Positions 12,001 through 15,000 of a DNA stretch of 64,000 nt are shown here, piece by piece. Position numbers: made by a program. How positions within the stretch are numbered: the first letter of the stretch is position 1; every line of letters starts with the position of its first letter. The DNA comes from Escherichia coli (GTDB taxonomy: Bacteria; Pseudomonadota; Gammaproteobacteria; Enterobacterales; Enterobacteriaceae): NCBI RefSeq assembly GCF_045037415.1, contig NZ_CP173438.1, one strand, 5' to 3'.

Positions 12001-15000
12001 TTTTACCACTACTGAGTCATCAACTGAGCGTTAAGCAGGTGATGCTAAAAGGGGCAGTGATCCAACTGACGCCGCAGACGGAAGCGGTGCGCAGTGAAGA
12101 CGCTCCGGTTGCACCGCGCGACAATACCTTGCCGGATCTGTCAGACGATCGCGGATGGTCGTTTGATATATCCAGTCTTAAGGTGGCGGACAGCGTTCTG
12201 GTGTTCCAGCATGAAGATGACGAGCAGGTGACAATCCGCAATATCCGCCTGCAAATGGAACAAGATCCCCAACATCGTGGCTCATTTGAGTTTTCCGGGC
12301 GGGTTAATCGCGATCAGCGCGATCTCACATTATCCCTTAACGGTACAGTAGATGCTTCTGATTATCCGCATGATTTAACGGCGGCTATTGAACAAATTAA
12401 CTGGCAGTTGCAGGGGGCCGATTTACCAAAACAAGGTATTCAGGGGCAGGGGAGTTTCCAGGCCCAGTGGCAGGAGTCACATAAACGCCTTTCATTTAAC
12501 CAAATCAGTTTGACCGCCAATGACAGTACGCTGAGCGGGCAAGCACAGGTCACGTTGACAGAGAAACCGGAATGGCAGCTGAGACTGCAATTCCCGCAAC
12601 TGAATCTTGACAACCTCATCCCCCTTAATGAAACAGCGAACGGTGAGAACGGTGCCGCGCAGCAAGGGCAGAGCCAATCAACGTTGCCGCGCCCGGTCAT
12701 TTCTTCGCGTATTGATGAACCGGCCTATCAGGGACTGCAAGGCTTTACGGCTGATATTTTGTTGCAGGCCAGTAACGTGCGCTGGCGCGGAATGAATTTT
12801 ACAGATGTTGCCACGCAAATGACCAACAAGTCGGGTTTGCTGGAAATTACTCAACTGCAGGGCAAACTTAACGGTGGACAGGTTTCACTGCCGGGCACGT
12901 TGGACGCGACATCAATAAATCCGCGGATAAACTTCCAGCCACGGCTGGAAAACGTTGAGATTGGCACCATTCTGAAGGCGTTTAACTATCCGATTTCGTT
13001 GACCGGAAAGATGTCACTGGCTGGTGATTTCTCCGGTGCTGACATAGATGCCGACGCATTCCGCCACAACTGGCAAGGACAGGCACATGTCGAAATGACT
13101 GATACACGCATGGAAGGGATGAACTTCCAGCAGATGATTCAGCAAGCGGTAGAACGTAATGGTGGTGATGTGAAGGCCGCTGAAAACTTCGATAACGTGA
13201 CGCGTCTTGACCGCTTTACCACCGATTTGACGTTGAAGGATGGCGTCGTGACGTTAAACGACATGCAAGGTCAATCGCCTGTGCTGGCGCTGACAGGGGA
13301 AGGCATGTTGAATCTGGCAGATCAAACCTGCGACACCCAGTTTGATATTCGGGTCGTGGGTGGCTGGAACGGGGAAAGCAAACTGATTGATTTCCTCAAA
13401 GAAACGCCAGTACCGCTGCGGGTTTATGGCAACTGGCAGCAACTTAATTACAGCCTGCAAGTGGATCAGTTACTGCGTAAACATCTACAGGATGAAGCAA
13501 AACGCCGTCTTAACGACTGGGCCGAGCGGAATAAAGATTCCCGCAATGGCAAAGATGTGAAGAAGTTGCTGGAGAAGATGTAGGTTACCAGGTGACCTGT
13601 CCTGTAGGCCTGATAAGACGCGTAAAGCGTCGCATCAGGCGTTCGTGGCGGCACCATTATATTCTGAATATGTAAGATCGAAGGCTGTTCCGTTCACTTG
13701 ATGTTCCTCGCTACTATGGAACGCTCAAGCCGGTGAACGTGCCAGGGTGGCTCAATCGCCACCACCCTGGCAACCCGGGCTCCCGGCGGTAAATCGCCGC
13801 TGGCGCGGTTCCCTCATCTTATTCCTTTCGGCTATCGGGTACGGGCGCGAGGTAACATCCCTGTAAAACGCGCCCTCAGCCCACATCCATGTGGGCTGCC
13901 CCGGCCTACAGGAAACGATTCGGCGATTTACAGCCGGACCCACACCCCCGCTGTGATGTCCATGTACCACAGACAACGCTTCATTGCTGAAGTTATAAGG
14001 CGTTACGCAGCATTGGGTAAAATGGCCGATGCCATCACACCTCGTACTCCATCTCGCCATCCTTACGCAGCGGAATAATCTGCACCTTCTGCACGCGATG
14101 GCTTTCCACCTGCAACGTTTTAAGCAAATAATCCCCCACCTGAACTTCTTCGCCAGGTTTTGGAATACGTTGCAAATATTCCATCAATAGCCCGGCAATG
14201 GTGTGATATTCACGTTTTTCATCCAGCGGCAACGGCACATATTGCACCAGATCTTCCAGCGGCATATGACCATTCGCCGTCCAGGAACCGTCCGCATTCT
14301 TCTGAATATCATGGCGGGCGTCGATCTCTTCCACTTCGTTCGGTAAGTTACCGGCAATGGTTTCAGTGACGTCACTTAATGTCACAATCCCTTCCACCGA
14401 GCCAAACTCATCCACCACAAAAGCAAAGTGTGTGCGGGCATTACGGAACTGCTCCAGGGCAGGTAACAACGGCAAGGTTTCCGGGAACACCAGCGGCTGG
14501 CGAATCAACACCCGCAGGTTGAGCGGTTCGCCGCGCAGTGACTGTTGTAGCAGGTCGATAACGTGAACAACACCGAGCAAATCTTCTGCGTCATCGCCAT
14601 CAGTAACGACAAGCCGCGTATGCTGATTTCGCTCCAGTAACTGGCGGATCTCGTCTTCCGGCGCGTTGAGATCGATATGCTCAATATCGTGGCGCGACGT
14701 CATAATGCTGCTGACGGTACGCTGGTTAAGATTAAGTACCCGCTCAATCATCCGCCGTTCCTGCGGATTAAAGATTTGCTGGTTACCATGATCCACCAGC
14801 ATAGACGCGGTTTCGGCGTCCAGTTCCGCATCTTCTTTTTGCCCACTAAGCAGGCGCATTACCGCTTCGGTAGTCCGCTGGCGCAGCGTCTGATTAGCGG
14901 AAAGAAAACGTCGCCGGTTAAAGATAGCCAACTGATTGAGCGCCTCGATCATCACCGAGAAACCAATAGCAGCGTACAGGTAGCCTTTCGGAATGACGAA

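Follow-up and report, generated by a model that had tools for sequence, protein, structure and literature searches.

Why should two converging genes of Escherichia coli be held apart by several hundred base pairs of DNA rich in strong hairpins? The question arises in a stretch of 64,000 nucleotides from E. coli assembly GCF_045037415.1 (contig NZ_CP173438.1), here called the window, in which asmA (11730-13583, plus strand) runs towards yegH, whose stop codon lies at 14035 on the minus strand. A first-pass annotation had described the gap between the two genes as about 450 bp long, GC-rich and without a convincing open reading frame (ORF), containing one repetitive extragenic palindrome (REP) and two near-perfect stems, and had proposed a small RNA, a degenerate repeat family or the remnant of a lost gene. 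The description was confirmed. The spacer spans 13584-14034 (451 bp), the REP is present at about 13600-13645, and the repeat described below has 61% G+C, against about 52% in the surroundings. Both stems exist, offset by 1-2 nt from the positions first given. The one noted first consists of CCAGGGTGG (13742-13750) and CCACCCTGG (13762-13770) around an 11-nt spacer, and can be extended to GCCAGGGTGG/CCACCCTGGC (13741-13771); the other consists of CAGCCCACA (13877-13885) and TGTGGGCTG (13890-13898) around a 4-nt spacer. Our analysis leaves very little doubt that the spacer is made up of the REP and a divergent member of the TRIP1/RRS repeat family. The two stems are helices of the conserved fold of that repeat, hairpin 4 and hairpin 1 respectively. 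A known family, and not a new kind of element, explains the spacer.

Identity and spread of the repeat

A BLASTN comparison of the spacer was made against a database of 5426 complete E. coli genomes. The central ~200 bp of the spacer was found again at other loci, with 82-86% identity over 177-207 nt to copies in the aqpZ-lysO (TRIP1a), yohP-dusC (TRIP1c), putP-efeU (TRIP1b) and proX-MFS spacers. An nhmmer profile of 45 copies detected a single copy in the window (13686-13955, E = 3.6e-78) and more diverged copies in the loci fetched for comparison. Similarity to K-12 TRIP1a (locus L071, 2509-2785) spans the full length of the repeat and is not restricted to the stems; global identity is 75-76% to TRIP1a and TRIP1c, and 79% to Enterobacter copies. 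The K-12 paralogue, at 915,008-915,284, coincides with the published TRIP1a at 915,016-915,281 (PMC10888264). The Rfam covariance-model scan proposed in the annotation was run over the whole spacer at permissive thresholds and gave no match above a gathering score, only sub-threshold matches to REP/naRNA4 and TwoAYGGAY. The old 'RSA' repeat family had first been suspected; the family turned out to be TRIP1.

Three K-12 copies of TRIP1 were described by Rudd in 1999, and Li et al. (2024, Genes 15:236) distinguished five types at five E. coli loci: TRIP1a at aqpZ-ybjE, b at putP-ycdN, c at yohI-yohG, d at alx-sstT and e at copA-ybaP (PMC10888264). These repeats are extragenic, 146-273 bp long and of 62-65% G+C, with a 'double-Y' predicted RNA fold and a function not known; they were implicated in chromosomal inversions, and the screen used a cut-off of >80% coverage by TRIP1a/b/c queries (PMC10888264). 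Pham et al. (2024, NAR 52:6392) characterised, under the new name of Replication Risk Sequences (RRS), the 222-bp RRS-lysO and RRS-dusC, which are TRIP1 repeats (PMC11194060); K-12 TRIP1a and TRIP1c are RRS-lysO and RRS-dusC. The asmA–yegH locus is not among the five loci of PMC10888264, where yegH is unmentioned. It is a new locus, which is compatible with TRIP1 membership.

The window repeat (~277 nt, extragenic between convergent genes) shares with TRIP1 homology over the whole ~270 bp, GC-richness, low copy number, a position downstream of a gene, a very stable predicted fold of 'double-Y' form and a proneness to inversion and rearrangement. It differs from the published copies, here termed type B, in the sequences of three elements, and is termed type A. 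The closing-stem extension reads CCGGC/GCCGG in type A and UGGCG/CGCCA in type B, hairpin 4 reads GGUGG/CCACC and GGCGG/CCGCC, and hairpin 5 reads CGUUCAC/GUGAACG and GCGCUCC/GGAGCGC. Type A was the main form among the Enterobacter copies collected. The suggestion of a degenerate repeat family was therefore half right: this is a repeat family, but it is neither degenerate nor unknown, being published as TRIP1/RRS (PMC10888264, PMC11194060). A known interspersed family is also the outcome that the annotation had named as speaking against its proposals, yet this one has only 1-5 copies per E. coli genome. What is added to PMC10888264 and PMC11194060 is a divergent subtype at unlisted loci (asmA–yegH and proX) and a 156-bp remnant in K-12.

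One genome of each bacterial species was scanned with a pattern that included the loop of hairpin 2, and about 50 copies were recovered from ten genera: Escherichia, Enterobacter, Citrobacter, Kluyvera, Lelliottia, Trabulsiella, Pseudocitrobacter, Pseudescherichia, Leclercia and Silvania. About 10 further matches, in unrelated phyla, are due to chance. Repeat length is constant at ~276 nt across the ten genera. Every copy with both neighbours known (~55) follows at least one gene, none is placed between divergent genes, and among these copies the orientation relative to the adjoining gene is mixed. The K-12 MG1655 record has no feature annotated in the aqpZ-lysO or yegH-asmA spacers.

Fold, covariation and GGA loops

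The window minus strand was taken as the sense strand of the repeat because it corresponds to the strand that carries the G-quadruplex (G4) in RRS, because G-U cells exceed A-C cells on it (32 against 17 in the alignment), and because the TwoAYGGAY match occurs on that strand only. The repeat was predicted to fold very stably on either strand, with minimum free energies as RNA of -132.5 kcal/mol for minus (z = -4.9) and -120.6 for plus (z = -5.6), and as single-stranded DNA (ssDNA) of -75.1 for minus (z = -6.4) and -69.2 for plus (z = -7.3). In every case, none of 200 dinucleotide-preserving shuffles was as stable.

RNAalifold analysis of the 45-copy alignment gave 61 pairs in 12 helices, with compensatory double changes in 24 of the pairs. 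Paired cells amounted to 97.9%, compared with 88.6% in column shuffles, and the covariation score was 0.269, compared with 0.109; neither observed value was reached in 500 shuffles, although the alignment scored was also the source of the structure, and its sequences share ancestry. When the structure was slid by 1-3 columns, about 40% of cells remained paired and the covariation score fell to 0.03-0.06. These compensatory changes, across 45 copies and ten genera, indicate that the fold is under selection. Covariation of this kind does not separate an RNA fold from an ssDNA fold.

The fold is built from a closing stem, a core that branches into two hairpins, and another pair of hairpins (Table 1). 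The most covarying part is P2, where 8 of 10 pairs show compensatory changes: AUC/GAU in the window copy is replaced by GGC/GCC, AGC/GCU, GAC/GUC or CGC/GCG in others, and the adjoining pairs vary between UUCCU/AGGAA, UCCCU/AGGGA and UGCCU/AGGCA. Compensatory changes were also found in half of the eight pairs of the P1 core and in 6 of the 10 pairs of hairpin 4 (GGUGG/CCACC, GGCGG/CCGCC, GGAGG/CCUCC, AAGGG/CCCUU). In hairpin 1, three pairs switch between C-G and G-C or A-U and G-C in 15-20 of the 45 copies (variants CCCAC/GUGGG, GGCGC/GCGCC, CGCGC/GCGCG and CCCGC/GCGGG). Three of the seven pairs of hairpin 5 are compensatory in 13-17 copies, the same columns reading GCGCUCC...GGAGCGC in type B.

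Table 1. Features of the asmA–yegH spacer in window coordinates
Feature	Position	Strand	Remarks
REP (repetitive extragenic palindrome)	13600-13645	.	directly after asmA stop; palindrome GCCTGATAAGACGCGTAAAGCGTCGCATCAGGC
REP–repeat linker	13646-13683	.	moves together with repeat
TRIP1/RRS-family repeat, divergent subtype (type A)	13684-13960	- (sense = window minus)	blastn, nhmmer, alignment
Hairpin 5, 3'-terminal long hairpin	13691-13739	-	CGUUCAC...GUGAACG
Hairpin 4 (stem noted first)	13741-13771	-	homologous to RRS G-quadruplex region
Closing stem P1, 3' strand	13781-13796	-	CGAUUUAC + extension CGCCGGGA; partner 13922-13940
Junction helices P2, 3' strand	13812-13826	-	AGGAAUAAGAUGAGG; partner 13910-13919
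K-12-type deleted segment	13842-14019	.	178 bp between GGGTA direct repeats; alignment
Hairpin 2	13843-13875	-	sense loop ACAGGGAUGU; stem GGGCGCG/CGCGCCC (nearly) invariant
Hairpin 1 (stem noted second)	13877-13898	-	sense loop AUGGAU
Closing stem P1, 5' strand	13922-13940	-	GGUCCGGC..GUAAAUCGCC
Segment between repeat and yegH stop	13961-14034	.	partly homologous to 5' flank of an inverted allele (L018)

On the sense strand, the two central hairpins carry the loops ACAUGGAUGU (hairpin 1) and ACAGGGAUGU (hairpin 2), about 28 nt apart. The consensus for CsrA obtained by SELEX (systematic evolution of ligands by exponential enrichment) is RUACARGGAUGU, with the core ACARGGAUGU. The loop of hairpin 2 matches it at 11 of 12 positions, and by sequence both loops resemble CsrA sites. 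The invariance of loop 2 in the 45-copy alignment was partly forced by the scan pattern. Copies that had not been selected by the pattern were considered separately (TRIP1b-, c- and d-like copies, a diverged Citrobacter copy and ten copies of a third subtype, type C). GGA was present in loop 1 in 12 of 12 of these and in loop 2 in 9 of 12; in two of the remaining three, the loop had been swapped for an inserted module bearing a GGA hairpin, and the third had CGA.

A similar arrangement is described by the Rfam motif TwoAYGGAY (RF01731), an orphan motif reported by Weinberg et al. (2010) in which a long P1 stem closes two hairpins with AYGGAY loops. The window copy scored 31.5 bits (E = 0.015), short of the gathering score of 43; Kluyvera copies scored 40-42 bits, and type C copies from two Pseudocitrobacter species reached 49.2 bits, above 43 and without a non-canonical pair. 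In the window copy, loop 1 (AUGGAU) fits the motif, loop 2 (AGGGAU) has R in place of Y, and P1 has 10+6 bp. The long closing stem around two adjacent hairpins with A(Y/R)GGAY loops is common to both, whereas hairpins 4 and 5 give the repeat ~110 nt of additional conserved structure beyond the motif. The taxa given for TwoAYGGAY are Clostridiales and human gut, with Enterobacteriaceae not named; the members seen in its seed include the gamma-proteobacterial NC_008709. A role in CsrA binding has been proposed for the motif (PMC4333381). Rfam, TwoAYGGAY and CsrA are unmentioned in both the TRIP1 (PMC10888264) and the RRS (PMC11194060) papers. In the gene tables of a CsrA cross-linking and immunoprecipitation (CLIP-seq) study, dusC and ybjE are marked as not bound (PMC5694010), a weak test, since the tables are for K-12 and gene-based. 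Small RNAs of the CsrB/CsrC type likewise present GGA in short hairpin loops with ACA...UGU-type closing pairs. They have many sites, however, whereas the window copy has two, with neither sequence homology nor CLIP-seq support, and promoter and terminator consensus sequences were not found with it.

Alleles and function of the asmA–yegH copy

Allele classes at the locus were found by joining the gene flanks into one query. The full 451-bp allele is present in 1424 of the 5426 complete genomes (at least 80% spacer coverage). In the K-12-type allele the spacer is 273 bp; the 3' 156 nt of the repeat is kept (L001 1602-1757, L072 2502-2657) and both GGA hairpins are lost. An allele of ~289 bp has another internal deletion, of roughly 13781-13941, and in a 67-bp 'empty' allele (O18:H1) the REP is the only content. 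In O157:H7 (Z1815; L069 2308-2926), genes for a RelE/ParE-family toxin and a helix-turn-helix (HTH) antitoxin stand in place of the REP and the repeat; this insert has no sequence in common with the window spacer, and yegH is annotated as frameshifted there. In Escherichia whittamii, Escherichia sp. E1V33 and the E. coli clade strain SCPM-O-B-8794, the block of repeat and linkers is inverted in place (L018 8640-9130, L050, L039 8365-8912) and bracketed by two inverted REPs, which suggests inversion by REP-REP recombination. In strain 2017.06.04CC, an element of the IS110 family of insertion sequences (IS) lies inside the repeat at this locus. Overall the copy is absent, truncated or replaced in most E. 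coli. The occurrence of intact, deleted, inverted, IS-interrupted and absent alleles indicates that it is polymorphic and dispensable in nature. In MG1655 the 156-bp remnant lies between yegH and asmA at NC_000913.3 ~2,139,501-2,139,656, unannotated, and is not among the three K-12 TRIP1 copies of PMC10888264 and PMC11194060.

Published data on function concern the two K-12 RRS. Their sense strand carries the G4 motif GGGGGTGCAGGGGGCGGCGG, which both loci have in the template of the lagging strand; the repeats block Pol I, II and IV in vitro, are associated with RecA/SSB-bound gaps in vivo and are conditionally essential (PMC11194060). When an RRS was inverted, the gap signal was lost and complementation of an RRS deletion was kept. 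The repeats work wherever they are placed, Pol II is blocked on the C-rich strand too, and any fast-folding structure might trigger gaps (PMC11194060). They lie ~650 kb from dif, flanking the Ter macrodomain (PMC11194060).

The window copy is paralogous to RRS-lysO and to RRS-dusC and shares their overall fold, with a sense strand that corresponds to the G4-bearing strand in RRS. It differs from them in several respects. The G4 motif is missing: GGGGGTGCAGGGGGCGGCGG was not found on either window strand, the homologous site in hairpin 4 reads GGGTTGCCAGGGTGGTGG, and the G4Hunter(25) maximum of 1.20 falls elsewhere in the repeat, compared with 1.84 at the G4 site of TRIP1a/c. The sense strand would be the leading-strand and not the lagging-strand template; in 7 of 8 bins of 8 kb the window plus strand shows a positive GC skew, which makes plus the lagging-strand template and minus the leading-strand template. 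Synteny places the K-12 site at 2,139.5 kb, which is ~90 kb closer to the terminus than RRS-dusC (2,229 kb). Finally, the copy is dispensable in many natural strains. The gap-formation findings belong to the K-12 RRS.

Strain SK1144 (ST131-like, 100% match to the window; L003) has a layout at odds with the picture of one RRS on each side of dif. Two family copies were detected there, at dusC-yohP (L074 27371-27645, minus) and asmA–yegH, an aqpZ-lysO copy not being counted, with the absence of TRIP1a inferred from the count of places only. A distance of 91 kb separates them; they share a strand, and the dusC copy has the opposite orientation to that in K-12.

The comparisons above show that the spacer carries a REP and a TRIP1 paralogue, and that selection keeps the multi-branched fold of the family intact. 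The reading that we favour, and hold to be reasonably probable, adds that this copy is dispensable and that its function is likely weak. The family would act through this intrastrand fold when the nucleic acid is single-stranded; the mechanism published for the K-12 RRS is that lagging-strand DNA polymerases are blocked, leaving post-replication gaps. The asmA–yegH copy would then be a dispensable paralogue with a weak effect at most, whose residual roles may be to form a stable structure, both in DNA under replication and in the yegH 3' untranslated region (UTR), to serve as a recombination substrate and to offer a target to an IS110-family element. This reading follows from the missing G4, the sense strand being the leading-strand template, and frequent loss or rearrangement. 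Several points weigh on the other side. The experimental RRS data cover type B K-12 copies only, and the replication-strand call comes from GC skew and K-12 synteny, not from a mapped origin and terminus. The allele is intact and 99-100% conserved in >1100 genomes, so that decay is not universal. Strong covariation, together with loops and junctions conserved in ten genera, also argues for a sequence-specific function of the family, if not of this copy, that the G4-centred RRS model leaves unexplained. That the fold and the GGA loops are kept across ten genera, with the G4 confined to one subtype, bears on how RRS work.

The GGA loops raise the possibility of a structured RNA in the yegH 3' UTR, in which the two GGA hairpins bind one CsrA dimer and TRIP1 is the enterobacterial form of TwoAYGGAY. 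The match of both loops to the CsrA core, the retention of GGA in copies not selected by the pattern, the sense-only TwoAYGGAY scores with the CsrA proposal attached to that motif, and the excess of G-U over A-C all point this way; in some copies a nested ~75-nt module supplies a third GGA hairpin. Complementation by inverted RRS in the absence of gaps also fits, in that the essential property may be independent of replication orientation (PMC11194060). Part of this evidence is less discriminating than it looks, the covariation and G-T wobble being equally expected of an ssDNA fold and the loop-2 invariance owing something to the search pattern. Sense transcription here would be that of the yegH 3' UTR only, 74 nt after the stop codon, and a scan for sigma-70 promoter and intrinsic-terminator consensus found none in or beside the repeat. 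The mixed, in-place-flipping orientation (also PMC10888264) misfits a cis-acting 3'-UTR role and would require an internal promoter. With the CLIP-seq tables also against it, we regard this explanation as unlikely. Could the copy instead be a working RRS, folding on template ssDNA, stalling the polymerase, leaving a transient gap that affects topology near Ter, and supplementing the dusC copy 91 kb away in ST131-type genomes? Whole-length homology to RRS-lysO and RRS-dusC and very stable ssDNA folds of both strands are in keeping with this, as are the position-independence of RRS, the C-rich-strand block of Pol II and the suggestion that fast-folding structures may suffice (PMC11194060), and SK1144 has only the two detected copies. 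The defining G4 is absent, however, with low G4 propensity at the homologous site; the sense strand as leading-strand template is the orientation that gave no RecA/SSB peak for the published RRS (PMC11194060); and most E. coli have lost the copy, wholly or in part, or carry other sequence in its place. We find this distinctly improbable.

A selfish, non-autonomous element, akin to a miniature inverted-repeat transposable element (MITE), whose hairpins serve a trans-acting transposase or recombinase without host function, would account for the multiple, near-identical copies within Enterobacter and Kluyvera genomes, the presence/absence polymorphism and in-place inversion, the ~480-bp Enterobacter unit with inverted ends, the head-to-head dimers and the nested module at two positions. 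It accounts less well for the low copy number of 1-5 per E. coli genome (PMC10888264) and for the orthology of several loci between species, such as aqpZ-lysO, which is shared by E. coli, E. albertii and E. whittamii. When the E. coli copy was compared with the empty allele, neither terminal inverted repeats nor a target-site duplication could be seen; no transposase was identified as a partner, and the long-range covarying junction helices and conserved loops exceed what end recognition by a transposase needs. This, too, seems doubtful to us. Rudd's LDR and QUAD repeats reportedly turned out to be type I toxin-antitoxin loci, and by analogy the spacer might hold a small-protein gene or the remnant of a lost one. 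The sole sizeable ORF (13752-14060, minus, 102 aa) exists, and O157:H7 has real RelE/ParE-HTH genes in the same spacer. That insert is, however, unrelated in sequence to the window spacer. The ORF has no NCBIfam match, and among the 45 copies no ORF of at least 18 aa is conserved in position, frame or length on either strand, with indels of 1-2 nt between copies. The annotation was thus right that no convincing ORF is present, its lost-gene option is unsupported, and a coding origin is hardly credible.

A broader, speculative proposal unites TRIP1, RRS and at least the enterobacterial TwoAYGGAY matches in one superfamily. Its conserved unit would be a covarying fold with two to three CsrA-type GGA loops acting as a CsrA-binding RNA, and the G4 and gaps would be a subtype add-on. 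We give it a low probability. If true, it would join three literatures without mutual citation in the papers compared, and would explain complementation by inverted RRS. The divergent subtype, the link to TwoAYGGAY, the conservation of fold and GGA loops but not of the G4, and the targeting of the hairpin-2 loop by IS110-family elements at two loci are testable leads.

Adjoining REP, insertions and other copies

REPs are single hairpins of ~35 bp that occur in hundreds of copies, and IS621, a member of the IS110 family, targets REP. The element at 13600-13645 is of this kind: an imperfect palindrome of ~35 bp, of the GCCKGATGCGRCG type, present in many copies, with near-identical ones at window ~6705-6744 and 35223-35361 and in other E. 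coli genomes. It matches the REP-derived Rfam family naRNA4 at a sub-threshold 33.1 bits. REPs and the bacterial interspersed mosaic elements (BIMEs) built from them resemble the window repeat in being extragenic and palindromic, in lying at gene 3' ends, and in local rearrangements and IS110-family targeting; TRIP1 is, in contrast, a multi-helix element of ~270 bp with 1-5 copies per E. coli genome. The REP adjoins this copy, as two inverted REPs do the inverted allele. In that allele (L018, L050, L039) a homologue of the linker between REP and repeat again adjoins the 3' side of the repeat, and the linker is missing from the 67-bp allele, as is the segment before the yegH stop, in which no terminator consensus was found.

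The IS110-family element noted above is 1386 bp long and, in other strains, is inserted between the positions equivalent to 13858 and 13859, in the loop of hairpin 2. In strain 2017.06.04CC (L073, asmA–yegH), the element at 2561-3946 separates GGTAACAT from CCCTGTAAAA; the same repeat position is hit in an O170:H18 strain at yohP-dusC (L007, element at 2108-3491). On the sense strand the insertion falls between TTACAGGG and ATGTTACC, with a probable AT core. The repeat-IS junction occurs in 174 of the 5426 complete genomes, at two loci and in two subtypes, and by analogy with IS621 and REP it looks like site-specific targeting. The inverted repeats of the element, GGACGCTCC/GGAGCGTCC, are subterminal, and its end downstream of the transposase gene consists of 273 nt of non-coding sequence. 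Comparison of this end with the target gave a 9-nt guide-like match, TGTTACCTC, by the insertion point, which was equalled in 6% of shuffles and is not significant.

In Enterobacter (L055, L056, L057, L059, L062), the repeat lies within the repeated unit of ~480 bp, which has the inverted ends CTGAGGGATCCCCAGTAATTT and AATTTTGTGGGGATCCCTCAG and a hairpin CCCTCTCCC...GGGAGAGGG, and looks composite or MITE-like. The nested module of ~75 nt (ACAAAAUUGCCGGGAGCAAUUUUGAAC...GGCCCAGGGAUGGGCC) has been inserted at two distinct sites within the repeat, in different genera (L039 ~8614-8690, L017 ~3333-3391, and L030 and L031 in type C) and contributes an extra GGA-loop hairpin, CCCAGGGAUGGG. Head-to-head (divergent) dimers are frequent, as at L016 (2150-2430, plus, and 1867-2139, minus) and L011 (932-1194, minus, and 1260-1517, plus), and also at L053, L024, L030-L037 and L064; one dimer partner is the more diverged type C.

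The proX copy (L004 1953-2228, strain JSWP006) is of type A, lies 42 nt downstream of proX and has only 55% G+C; this locus is likewise outside the published five (PMC10888264). Downstream of each of two TerC-family genes lies a sense-oriented copy of the family, at 89 nt from alx (TRIP1d, L075 2143-2414, plus) and at 74 nt from yegH. The pairing may be a coincidence, and other lineages have the yegH copy in inverted orientation. Elsewhere in the window, positions 40001-56000 have a low GC content (0.38-0.40 versus ~0.52) and a strong positive GC skew, and presumably represent the O-antigen cluster, given the adjoining colanic-acid region.

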